DNA of 64,000 bases from Minisyncoccia bacterium (GCA_041742075.1 JBGSJJ010000015.1:1132-65131), one strand, 5' to 3'. Positions 2,830 to 46,204 are shown, counted from the first letter of the stretch. The notes: generated by a model from the letters alone, not told the origin. Numbers and translations are program-made.

Positions 2830-5800
2830 CTAAAAAGTGGTCATGTTATGTTGCTTGCCATCTTCACGAGTGAGGGTAACGTCAAGCGAGAGTCCACGAA
2901 GCTGATTAACGAGTACGTTAAAGGCTGCTGGGGTGTGTGGGTGACTGATTTTTTCACCTCGTACAATTGAGTCGAAAGCGGCGCTTCGTCCAATGATATC
3001 GTCTGACTTAATCGTGAGCATTTCACGGAGTGTATACGCAGCACCATACCCAAGGAGTGCCCACACTTCCATTTCTCCGAAGCGTTGACCTCCCACCTGT
3101 GCCTTACCACCAAGTGGCTGTTGCGTAATGAGTGAGTAGGGTCCAATCGAGCGCATGTGAATCTTGTCTTCCACCATGTGGTGAAGTTTAAGAATATACA
3201 TGTAGCCGACTGCTGTTCGTTGTTCAAACTTTTCACCAGTACGACCATCACGAAGTTGCATCTTGCCGTCAGTGGCAATTCCGGCTGCTGTAAGTTCTGT
3301 CTTGATTTCTTCTTCGGTAGCAGAAGCAAACGGTGGCACGATAGCTTGGTAGCCGAGTGTGTGAGCGGCCATTCCCAAGTGAAGCTCAAGAATCTGTCCG
3401 AGGTTCATACGACTTGGTACGCCAAGTGGTGTCAGGATGACGTCAATTGGTCGACCGTCTTCAGTGTATGGCATATCTTCTTCAGGCAAGATTCGTGAGA
3501 TAACACCCTTGTTACCGTGACGTCCCGCGAGCTTGTCACCCACTGAAACATTTCGGACCTGAGCAATCGTGATATGGATTCGCTTAATCACACCACTCTC
3601 GAGCTGATCACCTTGTTCACGAGAAAAGATTTTTACCCCAATCACGCGTCCACGCTTCCCTGCCTCAAGACGAAGTGACGTGTCTTTTACGTCTTTGGCT
3701 TTCTCACCGAAGATAGAACGAAGGAGTCGTTCTTCTGGAGTAAGTTGTGCTTCACCCTTTGGTGTTACTTTACCAACCAAGATATCTCCCGGACGCACTT
3801 CAGCTCCAATACGGATAATGCCGTTTTCATCGAGGTTGCGAAGCTTCATTTCACTTACGTTTGGGATGTCTGGCGTCGTGACTTCCGGCCCAAGCTTTGT
3901 GTCTCGAACTGATACATCCAATTCTTCAAGGTGAATTGATGAGAACTTACTTTGCTTAACGAGTCGTTCAGAAATAATAATCGCGTCTTCGTAGTTTGCA
4001 CCACTCCAACTCATGAACGCCACCATCGCATTTTGACCGACGGCAATCTGACCTTGGTCAGTTGAAGACACGTCAGCAATAATGTCACCTCGTTTTACGT
4101 TCTGGCCAATTGATACCGACACGCGGTGGTAAAAGGCTGAGAAGTCGTTTGTTCGTTGGAAGGTAGTAAGCGTGTATTCGTGCTTCTTTCCATCCTTACT
4201 CTTAATGACGATATGTCGTGCATCAGCTTCGATTACTTCACCAGCTTCGTGCGCAACAAGCACACGACCAGTGTCCTTGGCTGAAAGTTCTTCAATACCA
4301 GTAGCAACAATCGGTGCCTCAGGGATGAGACACGGCGTTGCCTGCTTCTGCATGTTACTACCCATAAGCGTACGGTTCGCGTCGTCATGGTTCAAAAATG
4401 GAATCATTGAGGTCGCTACAGAGAACGCTTGGTTGGTAGCAATATCCATGAAGTTCACGTCTTTCTTCAAAACCGTGCGTGGCTCTCCATTAATACGCGC
4501 CTCCACCATGTCTGGTACGATTTTGCCGTTTTTGTCTACTTCAACCGCTGCATGAGCAATCGTAAAACCTTCTTCTTCATGAGCGTTTAGGTACACTACC
4601 TCGTCAGTCAAAACACCCTTTTCTACCTTTACGTATGGAGTTTCGATAATACCGAATCGATTGACGCGAGCGTACATCGCGAGGCGAAGAATAAGACCAA
4701 TGTTTGGGCCTTCTGGCGTGTGAATAGGACAGAGACGGCCATAGTGACTTGGGTGTACGTCACGTACTTCAAAGCCAGCTCGTTCACGAGTAAGTCCACC
4801 CGGTCCAAGCGCTGAGAGAGTTCGAAGACCTTCAAGCTCACCAAGCACGTTTTGCTGTGGCATAAACTGTGAAAGTTGGTTGGTAGTGAAGAACTCCTTG
4901 ATAGCCGCCTGGAGTGGGCGGGGGTTGACGATTTGCATTGGGAGAGACGTCTCTGCTTCAATCGTCGACATTCGGTCTTGAATGTTTCGCTTCATGCGAG
5001 TCATACCTACTCGAACACGTTGCTGAATCATTTCACCAAAGTACCGTACACGACGGAACCCGAGGTGGTCGATATCATCAGCCGCTGAGCCCGCGGTGTG
5101 GTTAAGCTTAATGATGTGGCCAACAATTAACTTGAAGTCTTCCAGGGTAATAGTTCGTTCGTCAGTCGCTTTTTTATCGATTGGTCGATGAAAACGTTCA
5201 TTGAAGTGGTGGCGACCAATTTCAGATAGGTCGTATCGTTGTGGTGAAAAGAGTGAGTTGATGAATTCCTTAGCATTTTCTACAGTTGCTAGGTCACCAT
5301 CACGAAGACGCTTGTACATTTCGATGTACGCATCGTTCGTATTCTTCACTGGGTCTTTAAGGAGAGTCGCTTTGATGTAGTCAGGTCCACGCTCAACGTC
5401 CTTGAAGAATTTTTCCATCTCCTTGTCAGTTTCAAGACCAAGAATACGGAGGAGTGACGTAAGAGGAATCTTCTTCTTGCGGTCAATCTTGATATAGAGG
5501 AGTCCATCAGCTTCAGACTCAACTTCCATCCATGCGCCACGAGCAGGAATAAGCTTCGCACCGAAATGCGTCTTACCTTTTACGTCTTGTGAGGTAAAGA
5601 AGATACCGTAACTTCGAGCCAGCTGTGGGACAACGACTCGTTCTACACCGTTAATAATGAAGGTACCGTGTTCAGTCATGACTGGCACGTCAGCCATAAA
5701 GATCTCTTGATCTTTAGCACTATCAAACGTCTTGTTCTTAAGAACAACCGTTGCCCGAAGTGGGGCGTCATAGGTAAGCTTGTTTTCCTTAGCAAAAGCT

Positions 5801-6006: not shown

Positions 6007-6412
6007 GGCGCCTACAGACGAATATTCGTCGGCCTTAGCAGTCTTATACATCGACATAAGTAAGAATGTTACGCGGTTTGTAAATCGCGATCTGCTTTGT
6101 CGTGCTTCGCAATTTGACACTCACCTTACACACAAAGTAAGGCTCGCACCAAATTCCTCACACTCCGCGCATCTCATCGATTTTCAACCCGCTTCGTTAG
6201 TAATGGAATGGGTTAGCAATGAAAACCGGCACATAAACGCACAAAAAGCACATCACCACTGACGTGTCCTTCTTGAGTATTTATTGTTGCACGATAACTA
6301 ATTGCATTCTGTGTGTTGTGGGGAAACACAGTGCTGTATATACACATTTCCCAGGTGTGCATACATCTACCTCCGCGACTTCACGTATCGTGACTCATCC
6401 GTGGTCGTTGGT

Positions 6413-6646: not shown

Positions 6647-6706
6647 CCCCAATTTTCTTATGGTCACCCTCGACAAGCACAGCGGGAACGCTGTGCTTTT
6701 TCTTTT
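6647..6706. repeat. Direct repeat copy 1 (52/52 with 1 mismatch, about 60 nt with looser flanks). A duplicated copy of the trmD 3' end lying just downstream of the mazF stop.
   Basis: ttcttatggtcaccctcgacaagcacagcgggaacgctgtgctttttctttt matches 7358-7409. It contains the hairpin AGCACAGCG-ggaa-CGCTGTGCT. Confidence 0.85.
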
Positions 6707-7040
6707 ATAACCCCAATTGCAGGCGCAACACATTCTCAACTGCTTGTAGATCACTAGCTGAGAGGTCAGCGATACGAGTGCCGAAACGCTGATGACTTAC
6801 GGTTCTAATCTGGTCAGTCATCGCTTTACTCCGCTGACGCTTAACAGTAACTAAACACTCACTTGGGTACACATGAGTGGTATTCGAAGTCAGCGGAACC
6901 ACCTGCACACGATTAAGATGCTTGTTAGCCATGTCATTACTGACTACAATCGCCGGTCGCTTCTTTTTCACTTCACTCCCTCGAGCAGGATTAAGATTGA
7001 CCCACCACACGGAGCCTCTCTTTGGTTTTAGAACCGCCAT
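6705..7040 (-). CDS. mazF: MazF/PemK/Kid-family endoribonuclease toxin (type II TA).
   Basis: 111 aa with VWWVNLNPARGSEVKKKRPAIVVSND...VVPLTS, typical of PemK/MazF. Overlaps the upstream antitoxin by 13 nt. Confidence 0.8.
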   Translation of the reverse strand: MAVLKPKRGSVWWVNLNPARGSEVKKKRPAIVVSNDMANKHLNRVQVVPLTSNTTHVYPSECLVTVKRQRSKAMTDQIRTVSHQRFGTRIADLSASDLQAVENVLRLQLGL

Positions 7041-7279
7041 ACATTTTCTGCTTCAAGCGTCTCATCAGTTCCATGTAGCCACTCACCCGCTTCGGCCTCA
7101 CGTGCGCTATCTTTAGCCATAGCTTTATACCCAGCTTCTATATCATCAACAATAACGTGCGGTCGAGCTAGTTGACTCAAGTACTCACCAACACCACGCG
7201 CACCGACTCGTGCTCGCAAACCTGCGTACACCTGCTCATCGAGCATTATTGTAATTTTCTTTTTTATGGCTGTTTTCAT
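7028..7279 (-). CDS. Antitoxin, probably leaderless, starting MKTAIKKKITIMLDEQVYAGLRAR (RHH/CopG-like). The ORF track extends it to 7306.
   Basis: Small ORF overlapping the toxin start. Operator palindromes sit immediately 5' of the ATG at 7279. Confidence 0.6.
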   Translation of the reverse strand: MKTAIKKKITIMLDEQVYAGLRARVGARGVGEYLSQLARPHVIVDDIEAGYKAMAKDSAREAEAGEWLHGTDETLEAENVWRF

Positions 7280-9685: not shown

Positions 9686-9720
9686 GCAAAATCCGCCCGA
9701 GTCAAAGCTGGCTCGGGCGG
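9686..9720 (-). terminator. Terminator hairpin CCGCCCGAG-N10-CTCGGGCGG followed by a T-tract on the minus strand. Terminates the islet-1 gene.
   Basis: GC-rich stem plus ATTTTGCTG on minus. Confidence 0.55.
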
Positions 9721-9751
9721 AGGAATGTGGGTGGTGGCGTGCTACAGGAAC

Positions 9752-10084
9752 TTACTGTTGGGGGAAGACTGTGAACAGTTCGGCTCGAGTACTCTCGTCC
9801 ATCTGACTAAGGATGTCTTCAGAAACCCAAACCGGGATAGTGCGCTTCGTGGGTCTCGGCGACTTCCAAACCGGTACATCGGGATCATCTGACCCCGTTA
9901 TGAGCCCAACGAGCTTATCGAGCGGTAATGGATCATCGTTCAGGGTATATGTTCGGCACAGATTAAGGAGCGGCGCACGGCCATATATTTCAGCGTCGAA
10001 ACCCAACCCCGATCTTTCGTGTACAACGATAGCCAAGTGCTGTTGTGCTGGTGGTACAGCACTGACGATGGTGACTTTCGGCAT
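9752..10084 (-). CDS. Hypothetical small protein (110 aa) in GC-rich islet 1. Paralog of the protein at 32078-32389.
   Basis: Local GC about 55-58% against a genome near 47%. Its own TTGACA...TATAAG-like promoter, an aaaagga RBS and a terminator. Shared motif CRxxxxx(D/E)D(P/Y)P...P(L/V)D...(L/I)VLI with the islet-2 protein. Confidence 0.5.
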   Translation of the reverse strand: MPKVTIVSAVPPAQQHLAIVVHERSGLGFDAEIYGRAPLLNLCRTYTLNDDPLPLDKLVGLITGSDDPDVPVWKSPRPTKRTIPVWVSEDILSQMDESTRAELFTVFPQQ

Positions 10085-10184
10085 GTTGGTTTTCCTTTTC
10101 CACGACTTGCAACTGAAGCCACCTTATAACAAATACACCGTTTGTCAATACTGAGCATTTCTGCTAAACTCAAGCCACTTATTT

Positions 10185-15069: not shown

Positions 15070-15194
15070 AAAGCAAAGCAATTTTGAATAGAGTGCGCGG
15101 CGCTAACAAAAAATAATGAGAGGCGTACTTAGTGGTACGATGAAAATTATTTTTTGTGTAGCAACAAAGCAATCTGTCAAAATTGCTTTGCTTT
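15070..15194. repeat. 18-nt perfect inverted repeat AAAGCAAAGCAATTTTGA / TCAAAATTGCTTTGCTTT enclosing about 90 nt (with a nested 9-bp hairpin), immediately 3' of the rnc stop.
   Basis: Perfect complementarity read from the sequence. The right arm abuts the rnc stop codon. Confidence 0.6.
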
Positions 15195-22852: not shown

Positions 22853-22887
22853 TGCACCGACCTTCTCTCTTGGGTCGGTGCAATTTT
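22853..22887 (+). terminator. Rho-independent terminator GCACCGACC-N9-GGGTCGGTGC + aatttttg.
   Basis: Stem plus T-tract. Confidence 0.65.
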
Positions 22888-22957
22888 TGACATAATCTAT
22901 TTTAAATGCATAATATAAATCGAATACACGTACACTGTTCACCTGAAGGAGACTTAC

Positions 22958-23374
22958 ATGGACATCAAGTCGCTAGAATTGCTGGTTCGAACATGGGCAA
23001 ATGAACAATCTCTCCCCTCTGCGGGGGTAACTGTCACAGTCTCAATTGTCTGCGCCGGAGATGGTCTTTCCACCCAAGCCACCATTGAGAGTACCGACAA
23101 CAACATTCTTCTTATGGACTTTCTTTCTGAAGAAAACTTTGAAGCAGCCGGTGTGCCGGCAAAGATTAATTTAATCAGAATTAGGAACGTACTACGTAAC
23201 ACCGCTGGAGACACGTACAACGACTTCCCGGACATCCGCTACTGTACCGTAGATGAATTCGTCAATCGAGTTACTGAGCGATCACTGCTCATGCAGCCGA
23301 ACTTCAGTAGAAAGTCGTTGACCTGCCTTAACCAAGTTCTCAAGCACCACGGATACCCCCAATTTCGCCCATGA
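22958..23374 (+). CDS. Hypothetical protein with an RNA polymerase alpha-CTD-like helix-hairpin-helix C-terminus.
   Basis: aaggag RBS. C-terminal PNFSRKSLTCLNQVLKHHG resembles the RpoA alpha-CTD motif PNLGKKSLTEIK. Confidence 0.5.
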   Translation: MDIKSLELLVRTWANEQSLPSAGVTVTVSIVCAGDGLSTQATIESTDNNILLMDFLSEENFEAAGVPAKINLIRIRNVLRNTAGDTYNDFPDIRYCTVDEFVNRVTERSLLMQPNFSRKSLTCLNQVLKHHGYPQFRP

Positions 23375-26580: not shown

Positions 26581-26743
26581 TTAGCGTAGCCAAGTCAGAA
26601 GTGCAACTTTTATGCCTTAATCACAAGCGTAGGAAAATTTTCCGCTACGAGACGTACGAGGAAAATGGTACGAGTCGTATTCAATATACGATGAGAACCA
26701 TTTTACCGAAGTACAACGACGTAGAGGAAGATTTTAACAAGCT

Positions 26744-30806: not shown

Positions 30807-31919
30807 ATGAACGAAAACGAACAAGTTGTGGTTGAGGTACCGGAAGAAAAGAAAACCGCCCTCACAAAAGTGTTTGCGATTGTTGGTTTCATTGCCATCA
30901 TTGTTCTCATGGTCTGGCTCTCAGTCAAAATTGTTGCCTTTGTACCAAATGCCTTTTCTTCACTCGCGTCAATTGCAGACAGTGTCTACAACTACGACGA
31001 GGACGAGAAGCTTAGTGTGGCAACTGAGAAGAGTGTGATCAATGCTGGTGAGGCTTTTACCATCACCTTTGAAAAAATGACCATTCCAGGTACGTATACG
31101 TTTATGTATACGTGTACTGACGGTGTGTCGGTTGAAGTTCGTAACGAGGCTGGCTCAATTGTAGCGATTAGTTGCGATACCGTGTTTGACATTAGTGAGA
31201 TGGACTCACTTGACGTCCGCGTCGCTTCAGAAAAGAATCGCTTTACTGACGTTGCCTATGCTCTCACCTTTACTCCAGACAATACCGACAAAGATGCTAT
31301 TTCAGTGCAAGGTATGGTGACCATCGTGAATGCCAGCATGCCAACCGTGGCAGAAGGTACTCCGGACACTGAGGAAACACCAGTTACTCCAGAAGTAATT
31401 GAGGAAACGGAAGAGGAAGTAGTGGCTGAACCAGAAGCTGAAGTAGTAGAGGAAACTACCACCACCCCAAAACCTCCAGTTGTAACAAAGCCGACTACTC
31501 CAAAGCCACCTCAATACCAATACGTAGAAGAAGTGACGTACACCACTCCTGTCTCTAACCCAAATGGCAACATCGACCTTCAGGTTACCTACAAAGCGGT
31601 CGGTACCATGAACGGTAAAGTATTTAGCCCTCAGTCAAACATTGAGACTGACGAAACAGGGGGTATTCAGTTTGAGGTAAAAAACATTGGTACCAAAACC
31701 AGTAACAGTTGGACCTATGAAGCACTTCTTCCTTCTGGAATTGAATACACTTCAGGTGTCCAAAAGCCACTTAAGCCACAGGAGCGTGCTCTCATCACCA
31801 TTGGTTTTGATGGCATCTCAGAAACTGGCACTGAAAAGTTTGGCGTCGAGCTTGAAACCAAGCAAGACGTTAACGCTCGAAACGACTCCTTCACTTGGGC
31901 AGTAACCATCGTTAACTAA
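30807..31919 (+). CDS. Hypothetical membrane-anchored extracellular protein with an acidic Pro/Thr/Glu-rich linker (370 aa).
   Basis: N-terminal TM helix (FAIVGFIAIIVLMVWLSV), low-complexity linker, beta-rich C-terminal domain. Confidence 0.5.
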   Translation: MNENEQVVVEVPEEKKTALTKVFAIVGFIAIIVLMVWLSVKIVAFVPNAFSSLASIADSVYNYDEDEKLSVATEKSVINAGEAFTITFEKMTIPGTYTFMYTCTDGVSVEVRNEAGSIVAISCDTVFDISEMDSLDVRVASEKNRFTDVAYALTFTPDNTDKDAISVQGMVTIVNASMPTVAEGTPDTEETPVTPEVIEETEEEVVAEPEAEVVEETTTTPKPPVVTKPTTPKPPQYQYVEEVTYTTPVSNPNGNIDLQVTYKAVGTMNGKVFSPQSNIETDETGGIQFEVKNIGTKTSNSWTYEALLPSGIEYTSGVQKPLKPQERALITIGFDGISETGTEKFGVELETKQDVNARNDSFTWAVTIVN

Positions 31920-31949
31920 ATTACTCCAGAGACTAGTAAGACGGCTCTA

Positions 31950-31995
31950 CAAAAACACCCGCCCCGAGGCCTTTGGCCTCGGGGCGGGTGTTTTA
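31950..31995 (+). terminator. Terminator AAAACACCCGCCCCGAGGCC-ttt-GGCCTCGGGGCGGGTGTTTT. Coordinates are +/-1.
   Basis: Long GC-rich palindrome with a T-tract, after the 30807-31919 gene. Confidence 0.7.
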
Positions 31996-32011
31996 TTTCT
32001 ACCTCAGGTAT

Positions 32012-32040
32012 GTTGACAATTCACTTATTTATACTATAAT
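32012..32040 (+). promoter_or_regulatory. Near-consensus sigma70 promoter TTGACA-N16-TATAAT driving the islet-2 gene.
   Basis: Read directly from the sequence. An aagagg RBS lies 6 nt before the ATG. Confidence 0.6.
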
Positions 32041-32077
32041 ACTACTGATACCCTGTCCCTCAAATCAAGAGGCCACC

Positions 32078-32389
32078 ATGACCAAGATCCCCTCGTACTG
32101 CAATCAGCTGGACTTTCCGTTGTTCGCAACGGAAAGCGGGAGCGTCGTTACCCCACGCCGCGCTGGGAACAAAGTCGCACTCGCCTACGTCGACGTCCGT
32201 CCGGCAGACCAGGCCTTCGGTATTCAGCCCAAGCAACCGGTCGCCCTCGCCGAGGTACTGATCCCGGCAAACGAACATGCCACCGCGTTCTGCCGCCAGC
32301 AAATGGTCGGCGAGGACTATCCGGGACCGACCTACCCGGTCGACCTCGAAGGTGAAATCGTCTTGATCACCCTTCAGCCCCAGGGCTGA
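32078..32389 (+). CDS. Hypothetical small protein (103 aa) in GC-rich islet 2 (about 62% GC). Paralog of the protein at 9752-10084.
   Basis: Strong promoter, RBS and downstream terminator. GC-rich third codon positions unlike neighbouring genes. Motif similarity with the islet-1 protein (FCRQQMVGEDYPGPTYPVDLEGEIVLI vs LCRTYTLNDDPLPLDKLVGLI). Confidence 0.55.
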   Translation: MTKIPSYCNQLDFPLFATESGSVVTPRRAGNKVALAYVDVRPADQAFGIQPKQPVALAEVLIPANEHATAFCRQQMVGEDYPGPTYPVDLEGEIVLITLQPQG

Positions 32390-32416
32390 GAAGTACAGGA
32401 CGAGAGCCTCAATCTG

Positions 32417-32446
32417 GAGCCCGCGACACTCGCGGGCTCTTATTTT
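32417..32446 (+). terminator. Terminator GAGCCCGCGA-cac-TCGCGGGCTC + ttatttt.
   Basis: GC stem plus T-tract. Confidence 0.75.
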
Positions 32447-32751
32447 ATATAGCGATTAATCGCTATATAAAAATGACTCGTCTATTTATCTAAGTTTCAT
32501 TTTTTGGAAGAGAAACGAAGGAATTGAAAAAATGTAAACAAGTAGTCTCTCTCGGCATATTAAATTAGATGAAATGCAAGATGTGGTAAGAAAATAATCT
32601 GAGGCGTATTCAAAAATTTACGTTATTTGTCACAGGTGGATATTTCAAAATTTTGATGAAGTACGAGGCGTGCAAAGCGTGTGAAGCGAAGCGTACTTGA
32701 TGTACGATGAGCTTCGCACGACTGCAGCACAACGAAGTAATTCGCAAAATT

Positions 32752-34935
<2,184 letters not shown>

Positions 34936-42118: not shown

Positions 42119-42901
42119 TTAGGCGCGGCGGTCAGCTGGCCTTGGACGACGAGTGTGTTCAGTTCGAACTGGTCGAGGTCGTTGCGTAACAGGCGCTGTG
42201 TAGTTTTTGCGACCTTCTTGGTACGCTGTCGCAAGTTCTTCAAGGGCGAGGATGATACTGGCCTTCAGTGCGTCATTAACTACAATTGGGTAGGTAATTT
42301 TCTTTGCATCACAGTCAGAGCTCATGATACCGATCACTGGTACTTTCATGTCGAGCGCTTCTTGCACAGCGATAGAGTCATGACGAGGGTCTACTACCAC
42401 CATAAAGTGTGGTGTTCGGTCCATGGCAATAATGCCACCAAAATTGAATTCAAGCTTGGTTATTTCACGACCAATTACCACTCGTTCTTTCTTGATATAC
42501 TTTCGTTCCATTTCACCTGATTCACGTTCAAGGACGAGTGCCTTGTAGCGTTCGATTCTTTTTCGAATCTCACTGTAGTTTGTCAAAATACCACCAATCC
42601 ACCGGTTTGTTACGTACGGCATTTCAATCCGCTTTGCAACTTCAGTTACATACGCTGAGGCTTCAGGCTTGGTACTCACAAAAAGTACGGTCTTGCCTTG
42701 TGCTCCCGCTTCAGACAGCAATGCTGATACTGCTTCAATTTGCGCTGATGTCTGTTCGAGGTCGATAATGTCGGTTCCCTCTTTGTTGGTAAAGATATAC
42801 TTAGCAACAGAAGGATGACGGCGACTCTTTGAAAAACCAAAATGAGCGCCGGCATTGAAGAGACGTTTGATGAGTGGTGTTGATGATTGTAATGTTGACA
42901 T
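42119..42901 (-). CDS. rpsB: 30S ribosomal protein S2.
   Basis: LFNAGAHFGFSKSRRHP...; gene order rpsB-tsf. Confidence 0.92.
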   Translation of the reverse strand: MSTLQSSTPLIKRLFNAGAHFGFSKSRRHPSVAKYIFTNKEGTDIIDLEQTSAQIEAVSALLSEAGAQGKTVLFVSTKPEASAYVTEVAKRIEMPYVTNRWIGGILTNYSEIRKRIERYKALVLERESGEMERKYIKKERVVIGREITKLEFNFGGIIAMDRTPHFMVVVDPRHDSIAVQEALDMKVPVIGIMSSDCDAKKITYPIVVNDALKASIILALEELATAYQEGRKNYTAPVTQRPRPVRTEHTRRPRPADRRA

Positions 42902-43928: not shown

Positions 43929-44119
43929 AGGTAGGTAACTACTGTACTGTAAATTCATCGTTTTTACCAACGGTACCAAGAATTTCAAAAGGTGTTCTTA
44001 AGTATCTCTACAAAAGCGCAAAGCTCAGAAATAGGATGAAGGACGAAAACAGGAAAAAAGCCAAGCGGTATGTAGTTTTAAAAAAGAACATGAAGTGGCC
44101 TAGATACGAGGAGGGCAAG

Positions 44120-44167
44120 AAAAAATACCCGACCGGGACTTGAGTTGGTCCAGGGAGGGTATTTTTT
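44120..44167. terminator. Bidirectional terminator AAAAATACCC-N26-GGGTATTTTTT, downstream of rpmE.
   Basis: Stem plus A/T tracts. Confidence 0.6.
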
Positions 44168-44190
44168 CGTAGCTCGACAAAGTAGATAGG

Positions 44191-44448
44191 CTAGTTCTTG
44201 GTCTTTTTCGCTGCTCGGGCCTTGAAACGCTCTACCCGTCCAGCAGTATCCATCACCTTTTCTTGACCGGTATAGAATGGGTGCGAAGCACTTGAAACGT
44301 CTACATACGCAATCGGATATTCAACACCGTCAGTCCATTTCGCTTTGTCAGTTGCTTCTACGGTTGAACCCACGAGAAATCGTGTTCCACTTGAGTTATC
44401 GTGGAAAATGACCGCTCGGAAGCCTTTTGGATGAATATCTTTTTTCAT
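44191..44448 (-). CDS. rpmE: 50S ribosomal protein L31 (type B, lacking the zinc-binding cysteines).
   Basis: MKKDIHPK...HPFYTGQ...GRVERF. Confidence 0.88.
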   Translation of the reverse strand: MKKDIHPKGFRAVIFHDNSSGTRFLVGSTVEATDKAKWTDGVEYPIAYVDVSSASHPFYTGQEKVMDTAGRVERFKARAAKKTKN

Positions 44449-44500
44449 AAGCCACCACTATAGCAGAAAACCCTTACTTGGCAAGAGTATCTAACTACCT

Positions 44501-44600
44501 GGACTTTTTACGCCCGAGGTACCTGGGTCAATAATCAACTTCGTATGCGAGGCAAACAAGGAAAAATCGCCGAGGTGAACTCTATCCTTCAGTGAGGCGA
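44501..44600. repeat. Repeat unit R1 (about 95 nt): a terminator-like hairpin plus a TTGACC-containing module. About 90% identical to R2.
   Basis: ccgaggtacctgggtcaataatcaacttcgtatgcgaggcaaacaaggaaaaatcgccgaggtgaac...ttcagtgaggcgattttt. Confidence 0.8.
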
Positions 44601-44736
44601 TTTTTATTGGCCTGGAGAGCCTCGGGTAAAGAATTGCTTCAAAGACAAGGAATGGGTAACGGGGTTCAGGAGACGTATTTCTATACGGTGACTGAGCACC
44701 GTGGGACCCATGACGCAGTATTTGAAGCAATTATTG

Positions 44737-44835
44737 CCCGAGGTACCTGGGTCAATAATCGACTTCGTATGCAAGGCAAACAAGGAAAAAGCGCCGAGGT
44801 GAACTTTTTCGTTCAGTGAGGCGCTTTTTCCGCTG
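44737..44835. repeat. Repeat unit R2, a direct repeat of R1. The partial inverted copy GATTATTGACCCAGG at 44863-44880 can pair with its 5' end.
   Basis: Direct alignment with R1 shows 5 substitutions and a variable loop. Confidence 0.8.
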
Positions 44836-44857
44836 TTTAACGAAGCAGACGTGTTGA

Positions 44858-46204
44858 TTATTGACCCAGGATGCGGATTTCGTTCTCTAAGCGCTGCATC
44901 CGACTAACCACCTGATCCCCATAAAACTGGTTCTCCGGACGACTGGCTCCTCCCCAACCGGCATAGTACCGAAGAGCTGCCAGGCGTGGACTTGAGGCGG
45001 CGCCGTTGTCACGAAGCAAGAGAGCGGTCGCGAGAAAGGCATCTTGGTTATTGAAAGGATTGGCGGGAGTGCTTTTACCGATCAGTGAACGGATGGCATC
45101 AGAAGACGCGTTATACTGCCAGCCACTACCTGAATTGGTGTACCCGCCGTAAATCGCCCAGGTGCTTGGTATAAACTGTGATGGCCCCATTGCCCCTCCC
45201 CAGCCATACGGAACGCCACCGCGAATAAGCGGACAGGAAACTTGCTGACGATTGGTATCAAAACCGAGCGCTGTGCCAATCGCTTTAAAGACTGGAGCGT
45301 CGCGCTCAGGGTGCATCACAGGTCTACCACCGCGTATTTCACTGTATATACAACTGCCGAGGTTCGAACCGTAATTAGTCTCTTGCTCAAGAATTGACAA
45401 AATCAGTGTTGGGGGAATACCGGCTAGCCTGCCAGCAGTTTGAGCCAGGGTAACTGCTTGGGGAAACGGAATGGCGCCGCCACCGCCGAGGAGATCAAAC
45501 AGCTGAGCTCGCAGTTGCGCCGCTGATTTTTCTTGCGTCTGCAGAAGTTGCTGGTACGCCTGCTCCTCTCCTTTAGTGACACGTAAAATACGTTGCTTCT
45601 CCGCTTCTTGCTTTTCAATCCGTTCGCGCTCCAACTCTTGGATTACTTTCATCTCAGCCTCAGTCAGTTGCTTTATCTCAAGCGACTCCTTCTCAAATTG
45701 TGCATCAGACCGAATCTCCTGAAGCGCACTAAGAGAATTATTGAGCGACTCTTTCACGGCATGAAAACTATCTACTTCGGAAAAGAAATCGGAGAAGTTT
45801 TTGTTACTGAGGAGTATCTCAACCAAGGTGAAGTCATCGGCCGAACGTGTCTCTCGCATAATTTTGGCTAGTGACTGCTTTTGCTTAACCAGTCTATCGT
45901 TTAAGACTTCAATCACCTCTGCCTTGTCGCCGATTTGGGTAGTGAGAGAATCAATCGCGAGTTCGCGAGCTTGTACGCCGAGCTCGGCTTTTTTTATCTC
46001 ACCAGAAATAATAGTAATGTCACGTTCGAGTGAGCGACGTTCACTTTGCTTGTCTTCAACCAGCAGTCTCTGTTGAAGAATTTCGCGTTCTACTATTTGT
46101 AGCTGAGCCTCAATCCGAGCCCGCCTTTCTGCGTCAGTTTCGGCATACCCAAACTGCGGAAAGAGCATAGTAAAACTAAGTACGAAAAATAGTATCGCTT
46201 TCAT
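44858..46204 (-). CDS. Secreted coiled-coil protein with a C-terminal lytic transglycosylase (MltB/Slt35-like) domain.
   Basis: Signal peptide. Long heptad-rich region. C-terminal motifs GPSQFIPSTW and YGGYTNSGSGW typical of the MltB family. Confidence 0.6.
   Translation of the reverse strand: MKAILFFVLSFTMLFPQFGYAETDAERRARIEAQLQIVEREILQQRLLVEDKQSERRSLERDITIISGEIKKAELGVQARELAIDSLTTQIGDKAEVIEVLNDRLVKQKQSLAKIMRETRSADDFTLVEILLSNKNFSDFFSEVDSFHAVKESLNNSLSALQEIRSDAQFEKESLEIKQLTEAEMKVIQELERERIEKQEAEKQRILRVTKGEEQAYQQLLQTQEKSAAQLRAQLFDLLGGGGAIPFPQAVTLAQTAGRLAGIPPTLILSILEQETNYGSNLGSCIYSEIRGGRPVMHPERDAPVFKAIGTALGFDTNRQQVSCPLIRGGVPYGWGGAMGPSQFIPSTWAIYGGYTNSGSGWQYNASSDAIRSLIGKSTPANPFNNQDAFLATALLLRDNGAASSPRLAALRYYAGWGGASRPENQFYGDQVVSRMQRLENEIRILGQ

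Follow-up and report, generated by a model that had tools for sequence, protein, structure and literature searches.

A GC-rich single-gene cassette, probably acquired horizontally, beside gyrB in a Kaiserbacteria-like genome

The 64,000-nt stretch of DNA analysed here (the window) comes from a Candidatus Kaiserbacteria-like genome (CPR/Patescibacteria), and holds a short GC-rich segment, islet 2, between the genes for a 370-aa surface protein and gyrB. We favour the view that islet 2 is a real single-gene cassette, probably acquired horizontally from a donor with a higher GC content; in kind, it is most plausibly an ordinary orphan gene specific to its lineage. A previous description, made from the sequence alone (the sequence-only reading), had presented it as one of two horizontally acquired paralogs with a selfish or accessory function, the other being islet 1, located 22 kb away on the opposite strand. 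The location of islet 1 is as described, and the gene in islet 2 and its signals are present. The paralogy and the proposed functions did not hold up when we compared the two proteins and searched for relatives of the gene.

Results and discussion

A self-contained transcription unit

The features discussed in this and the following sections are listed in Table 1. The 103-aa ORF, its perfect promoter and the strong terminator behind it were all correctly recognised in the sequence-only reading. The promoter is of sigma-70 type and matches the consensus at 12 of 12 hexamer positions. Transcription is predicted to start near 32047, giving a leader of about 31 nt with an SD-like motif, which is indeed AAGAGG as first described, but is 5 nt rather than 6 nt ahead of the ATG. 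Terminator T2 has stem arms at 32417-32426 and 32430-32439, followed by TTATTTTAT, and is predicted to act in the plus direction only. The ORF spans the interval between promoter and terminator, so that the unit is monocistronic. Taken together, the consensus promoter, the short SD-led leader, the 103-codon ORF and the intrinsic terminator would make islet 2 a genuine autonomous cassette.

The cassette is preceded by a second terminator (T1) belonging to the 370-aa gene. A counterpart with the same A-run, hairpin and T-run was found at the equivalent position in relatives, and we take T1 to be native and outside the insert. On the other side, an AT-rich tail extends to the gyrB stop codon at 32752; its GC content of 35.2% (32447-32750) agrees with the value of about 33% given for this region earlier. 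Between T2 and gyrB there is no ORF of at least 40 aa besides spurious overlaps, and the AT-rich spacer within this tail has neither a convincing ORF nor an RNA family match.

Table 1. Coordinates of islet 2, islet 1 and the hairpin element, in the window unless a related locus (L) is named.
Feature	Position	Strand	Details
Terminator T1, bidirectional intrinsic, of the upstream 370-aa gene	31952-31994	+	20-bp perfect stem, A-run/T-run flanks
Promoter, sigma-70-type	32013-32040	+	TTGACA 32013-32018, 16-nt spacer, TATAAT 32035-32040
Shine-Dalgarno-like motif	32067-32072	+	AAGAGG
Islet 2 ORF	32078-32389	+	103 aa; ATG at 32078
In-ORF hairpin	32113-32136	+	Perfect 10 bp, UUCG loop; codons 12-20; CTTTCCGTTG-TTCG-CAACGGAAAG
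Terminator T2, intrinsic	32416-32448	+	GC-rich 10-11-bp stem, 3-nt loop, T-tail
Palindrome	32443-32472		Perfect, 30 bp; arms TTTTATATAGCGATT and AATCGCTATATAAAA
AT-rich spacer	32473-32637		Between palindrome and hairpin element
Hairpin element, copy by gyrB	32638-32760	+	3' arm overlaps last gyrB codons
Hairpin element, other window copies	15070-15193, 26626-26742, 44082-44206, 44620-44742, 44746-44869	+	
Hairpin element, other window copy	6074-6192	-	
Hairpin element, L004	7061-7182, 2021-2142		
Hairpin element, L005	1390-1519		
Hairpin element, L006	1570-1693		
Hairpin element, L011	5444-5561		
Hairpin element, L018	5128-5251		
Hairpin element, L019	2414-2535		
Hairpin element, L023	25-144		
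Hairpin element, L027	2789-2914		
Hairpin element, L030			Five copies
Islet 1 ORF	9752-10084	-	110 aa; flanks 9690-10184

A coding sequence with foreign base composition

At 61.5% GC, the islet 2 ORF stands well above the window (47.4%), and when the 64 kb are ranked by GC content in 300-bp windows, the top three fall at islet 2. The value of about 62% originally given for the whole segment applies to the ORF; the interval 31950-32446 has only 57.1% GC. The excess is strongly periodic, with GC fractions of 0.66, 0.43 and 0.75 at the first, second and third codon positions (chi-square p=7e-6 for codon periodicity). This pattern is the signature of a real coding sequence from a GC-rich background. 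Third-position GC (GC3) compares with 0.32-0.54 in 18 other ORFs of the window, from which we calculate that it lies about 4-5 standard deviations out. Amino-acid composition cannot account for it, and the gene for ribosomal protein S16 has a GC3 of 0.41, so high expression is not the cause of the shift either.

The promoter and the flanks of islet 2 are AT-rich and native-like, which makes the cassette a compositional mosaic. Horizontal transfer, fairly recent and from a donor with about 60% GC or more, is the most likely source of the coding part, whose GC3 has not drifted towards the host value.

An insertion between conserved genes

Using the neighbouring 370-aa protein as a query, we recovered 24 related loci. 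The gene order sortase, 370-aa gene, gyrB is kept in the relatives wherever the contig extends far enough, and the neighbours of islet 2 (sortase, surface protein, gyrB and pheST) are core genes. The 370-aa gene and gyrB are convergent, with a spacer of 88-396 bp in 22 relatives, 554 bp in a 23rd (L011) and 839 bp in the window. None of these 23 spacers contains the islet 2 ORF, the compact ones have no remnant of the gene, and there is no nucleotide similarity to islet 2 elsewhere in the window or in the relatives. Since the relatives have short spacers without the gene, islet 2 is a lineage-specific insertion, which would have placed the cassette in an otherwise short convergent spacer. The sequence-only reading had islet 2 as acquired, and the GC3 outlier, the empty slot in 22 relatives and the lack of homologs (described below) agree with this.

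The longer spacer of L011, a distant relative (contig JACCDR011537274.1), contains an ORF of its own between the 370-aa gene and gyrB. This ORF (5065-5376, minus strand) also encodes 103 aa, but is AT-rich (GC 0.34) and unrelated to islet 2. The slot therefore tolerates accessory genes, and small ones seem to land in it repeatedly.

The closest available relative is distant, with 76% identity in RNase R and 53% in the 370-aa protein, and so synteny provides neither a date for the insertion nor its exact junctions. An approximate right-hand limit comes from the palindrome behind T2, whose left arm overlaps the T-tail of the terminator. Its right arm and the next ~30 nt (32454-32498) align with an intergenic spacer of L003, the closest relative (7168-7206); this alignment scores 32, whereas shuffles reach 30 at most. 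The insert therefore seems to extend over roughly 32000-32455, with both ends approximate. At the corresponding position L003 carries an imperfect palindrome of 14 bp, and the palindrome in the window may be an elaborated ancestral site rather than a component of the insert. It had been described as a perfect palindrome of 20 bp; it is real, though the 20 bp are only the core of a perfect 30-bp palindrome. This sequence occurs once in the window and in none of 100 shuffles, and has no match among viral contigs.

As for the means of insertion, the search for a donor, a mobility gene, a target-site duplication or a prophage around islet 2 was negative. The flanks share just a trivial TTTTAT repeat and no meaningful direct repeat, and the single tRNA of the window is 8 kb away. 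Two technical or local origins were also considered and rejected. The islet 2 protein is also found on an NCBI contig of 130,757 bp, and the window is matched at 100% identity, through both junctions, by two Logan assemblies from different runs (L001 and L002). These matches rule out an assembly chimera. Sequence comparison likewise led us to reject an origin by internal duplication or as a copy of a native gene in a shifted frame.

An orphan protein

The predicted protein has a mass of 11.2 kDa and an acidic pI of 4.7, and by eye no signal peptide or transmembrane segment is evident. A word-indexed search of 5.8 billion clusters returned only the protein itself (islet 1 gave the same result), and phmmer against 1.84 billion representatives returned the protein itself and one further sequence, P0002 (E=3.5e-16). 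We reject P0002 as a repeat-summed artefact. It is a 1126-aa protein of near-identical tandem repeats of ~58 aa, and its score sums ten near-identical weak matches; one unit has a raw score of 55, or about 26 bits, which is at chance level in a library of 2.4e11 residues. Nothing resembling the islet 2 protein was found among about 15 billion proteins.

The protein also had no match in Pfam, PHROGs, NCBIfam, PADLOC or the PDB sequences, tblastn against phages and plasmids gave only hits with E of 3 or higher, and a scan of viral contigs found nothing. The literature search returned nothing directly relevant to the cassette. The empty PADLOC, Pfam, PHROGs and NCBIfam searches, together with the absence of a partner gene, mobility gene or prophage, give no backing to the anti-defence, addiction or regulatory function suggested by the sequence-only reading. 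A single-sequence AlphaFold2 model is all-beta, though unreliable (pLDDT 47.8), and a Foldseek search of PDB with this unreliable model gave nothing with E below 1. The product would be small, acidic, soluble and probably beta-rich. With neither donor nor homolog, and neither mobility gene nor prophage, the argument for a horizontal origin is one of composition and synteny: the base composition is deviant and the gene is absent from syntenic spacers, while a donor or mobility signature was not found.

Might islet 2 instead be non-functional foreign DNA, a high-GC or mobile-element fragment, junk or a pseudogene, whose frame and signals are fortuitous or decaying? High GC favours long ORFs, an 80-aa ORF is also open antisense to the islet 2 ORF, and we estimate that an open frame of 104 codons at 62% GC has about a 5% chance per frame. 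There is also no homolog to support conservation of the protein, and the two Logan assemblies, being identical to the window, offer no variation that could show purifying selection. Against this, a promoter with all 12 consensus positions, an SD motif 5 nt ahead of an ATG, a stop codon and a terminator are correctly ordered around one frame, which is intact and has a codon periodicity typical of real coding sequence. We therefore regard non-functional DNA as an unlikely explanation.

Promoters and leaders in the window

The 64 kb contain only two perfect promoter sites. Allowing up to one mismatch gives six sites, compared with 1.16 in shuffles, and most of the six are upstream of a correctly oriented ORF. 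Near-consensus promoters (TTGACA-16/17-TATxAT) also precede neighbouring native genes. The islet 2 promoter is therefore native in style and is no mark of selfishness, contrary to what its perfection had been taken to suggest.

The other perfect promoter (TTGACA-18-TATAAT, 7316-7287, minus strand) belongs to a toxin-antitoxin pair inserted between trmD and rpoB. The pair consists of a MazF/PemK-family toxin (6705-7040, minus strand; Pfam E=1.6e-28) and an antitoxin-like ORF upstream of it (about 7028-7279). Its ATG lies at the predicted transcription start, and the mRNA looks leaderless.

Most of the 41 larger ORFs also have no SD motif, and in many of them a TATACT or TATAAT box lies 7-12 nt ahead of the ATG (for example at the starts 18453, 18971, 30464, 46204 and 50549). 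This suggests that leaderless mRNAs and leaderless translation may be widespread in this genome. Three small cassettes are exceptions, with leaders that contain SD-like motifs: islet 2, islet 1 and a third at 22887-23374 (plus strand). The third follows the terminator of the preceding gene and consists of a TTGACA-16-CATAAT promoter, a 43-nt leader with AAGGAG and a 138-aa ORF (22958-23374). Its GC content is normal (0.48), it has no Pfam domain, and it is not similar to islet 1 or islet 2. Transcription of islet 2 would presumably be constitutive and its translation SD-led, in a genome of mostly SD-less or leaderless genes.

These observations bear on whether islet 2 could be a native lineage-specific gene, with its GC content resulting from peculiar selection, fast evolution or de novo origin, and its counterparts lost or diverged in the relatives. 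Its promoter is of the same type as those of its native neighbours, similarly built orphan cassettes with normal GC content (islet 1 and the 22958-23374 ORF) occur in the window, and no donor was found. However, a native gene is hard to reconcile with a GC3 this far beyond that of the other ORFs, for which neither amino-acid composition nor selection by high expression (as judged from the S16 gene) offers an explanation, nor with the compact spacers of the relatives, which preserve no remnant. A native origin thus seems distinctly unlikely, and we retain the acquired gene as the preferred reading.

Protein gene or structured RNA

Islet 2 is a discrete transcription unit with its own promoter and terminator, and in principle its product could be a structured RNA of about 400 nt, either non-coding or with a dual function, in which case the GC content would reflect RNA structure in an AT-richer genome. 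Two observations are in keeping with this. Its folding z-score is -3.08 when the terminator is included, and the ORF contains a perfect 10-bp hairpin with a UUCG loop, of a kind that shuffling the ORF reproduced in just 9 of 3000 cases (p about 0.003). But the z-score drops to a weak -2.09 without the terminator, and the strong three-base periodicity is unexpected for a non-coding RNA. Searching Rfam 15 at E up to 10, the best matches in 31900-32800 are hairpin look-alikes far below their gathering scores; the only gathering-level match in the whole window is a tRNA. The periodicity, the weak folding without the terminator and the lack of an Rfam family together indicate a protein gene rather than an RNA gene, and we reject the structured RNA as highly improbable.

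No detectable relationship to islet 1

The sequence-only reading had islets 1 and 2 as acquired paralogs of one selfish or accessory family, with an anti-defence, addiction or regulatory role, and based this on a collinear set of motifs. The two do have several features in common: both encode small (110 and 103 aa), acidic orphan proteins, both are monocistronic with a promoter, a purine-rich RBS and a terminator of their own, and both are placed in conserved spacers. Islet 1 sits between rpsP and rnr, where three relatives have a spacer of 75-385 bp without an ORF, and its terminator (CCGCCCGAG...CTCGGGCGG) lies ahead of the rpsP promoter.

The similarity does not extend to the proteins. Pairwise alignment, in which a lack of significant similarity refutes the paralogy by the sequence-only reading's own account, gave a BLASTP match of E=1.9 on a different, non-collinear stretch, and Smith-Waterman scores were no better than those of shuffled sequences (p=0.26-0.42 across four gap settings, 1000-2000 shuffles). 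A regular-expression scan of the six-frame translation showed that the motif as originally written has no ungapped fit to islet 1. The sole ungapped piece common to both proteins is CR-x5-[DE]D, which also occurs by chance at 42227. The single-sequence AlphaFold2 models differ in their secondary-structure patterns, islet 1 being a beta-hairpin with helices (pLDDT 43.1) and islet 2 all-beta, although both models are of low confidence.

Nor is islet 1 GC-rich, as had been claimed: with a GC content of 0.523 and a GC3 of 0.532, it is within the range of ordinary genes, and so shows no compositional sign of horizontal transfer. Combined with the alignments and the lack of any match in PADLOC or PHROGs, this makes a common family of acquired paralogs hardly tenable. 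On the available alignments, paralogy of islets 1 and 2 is not supported, and islet 1 is by all appearances a lineage-specific orphan cassette in its own right.

A recurrent hairpin element

Between the AT-rich spacer and gyrB lies a copy of a ~123-nt hairpin element, which relatives also have next to gyrB without the ORF; it is therefore not part of islet 2. A covariance model built from the copies of 7 relatives finds 7 copies in the window and 14 in relatives (Table 1). The stems differ completely between copies, and yet 90.9% of cells pair, compared with 35-40% in slid controls. Double-sided (compensatory) changes occur at 40 of 45 pairs, and covariation scores 0.82, where the slid controls give 0.08-0.16. 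Conservation is found in blocks of the internal loops (CGAGGCG, GAG..GUAC-loop-GUACGRUGA and CAACAAAG).

G-U pairs outnumber A-C pairs on the modelled strand by 51 to 10. In 6/7 copies in the window and in 3/6 of the copies in L027 and L030, the element abuts or overlaps the stop codon of a gene to which this strand is antisense; these genes (gyrB and others) lie on either strand. The element has no match in Rfam. One possibility is a new class of RNA element, of the cis-antisense or 3'-end type, in Kaiserbacteria-like genomes.

Three of the copies occur in one 0.8-kb intergenic stretch between two minus-strand genes (44082-44869). The last two are only 3 nt apart, and small minus-strand ORFs (44191-44448 and 44491-44730) are interleaved with the copies.

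Similarity to known systems

Phage morons are reportedly autonomous one-gene units consisting of a sigma-70 promoter, an ORF and a factor-independent terminator. They are also said to be located between two conserved genes, to deviate in composition from their surroundings and to be absent from related genomes. Islet 2 resembles them in all these respects, having its own promoter, ORF and terminator, a deviant composition, conserved genes on both sides and no counterpart in relatives. It has the architecture of a moron outside any phage or prophage, however: it lies on the chromosome, between a surface protein gene and gyrB, with no phage genes nearby and no match in phage or viral collections.

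Islet 2 is also similar to the ORFans of CPR/Patescibacteria, being a short hypothetical gene that has no homologs or domains and belongs to a small, streamlined genome, and having two more such cassettes (islet 1 and the 22958-23374 ORF) in the same window. It differs from these in its outlying GC3 and in its SD-led leader in a mostly SD-less or leaderless genome.

A third comparison is with small acidic inhibitors, such as anti-CRISPR, anti-restriction and orphan immunity proteins. The likeness is circumstantial, and consists of a length of about 100 aa, a pI of 4.7, a strong promoter, an orphan distribution and a deviant composition. Unlike these, islet 2 lacks an aca-type HTH regulator next to it, as well as any toxin or defence gene and any mobile-element context. 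It is surrounded by core genes, and PHROGs, Pfam and the tblastn search of phages all failed to identify an anti-CRISPR or anti-defence locus. Neither does islet 2 look like a type II toxin-antitoxin system, as it is monocistronic and without a match in Pfam or PADLOC; in contrast, the MazF/PemK pair in the same window (6705-7279) was readily recognised. One could speculate that the product acts as a stoichiometric binder or inhibitor, perhaps as an accessory protein of the immunity or anti-defence type.

A more far-reaching possibility is that islet 2 represents a new family of small acidic proteins, captured by an episymbiotic CPR bacterium from its high-GC host or from a phage of that host, with constitutive expression today and, for instance, a role in immunity or anti-defence. 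We give this little credence. If it were true, the foreign codon signature could be a clue to the identity of the host, and the cassette could owe part of its regulation to the UUCG hairpin and the 30-bp palindrome.

Conclusions

The paralogy that had made islet 2 look special is not real. As it stands, islet 2 is one more small orphan gene of the CPR, and a clean moron-like cassette of foreign composition in a streamlined chromosome. As a lead, the hairpin element beside it seems more promising, being abundant, strongly covarying and absent from Rfam. Islet 2 itself would matter if its protein inhibits a defence or toxin system, and identification of the donor would attest gene flow into an episymbiont and give some indication of its host.
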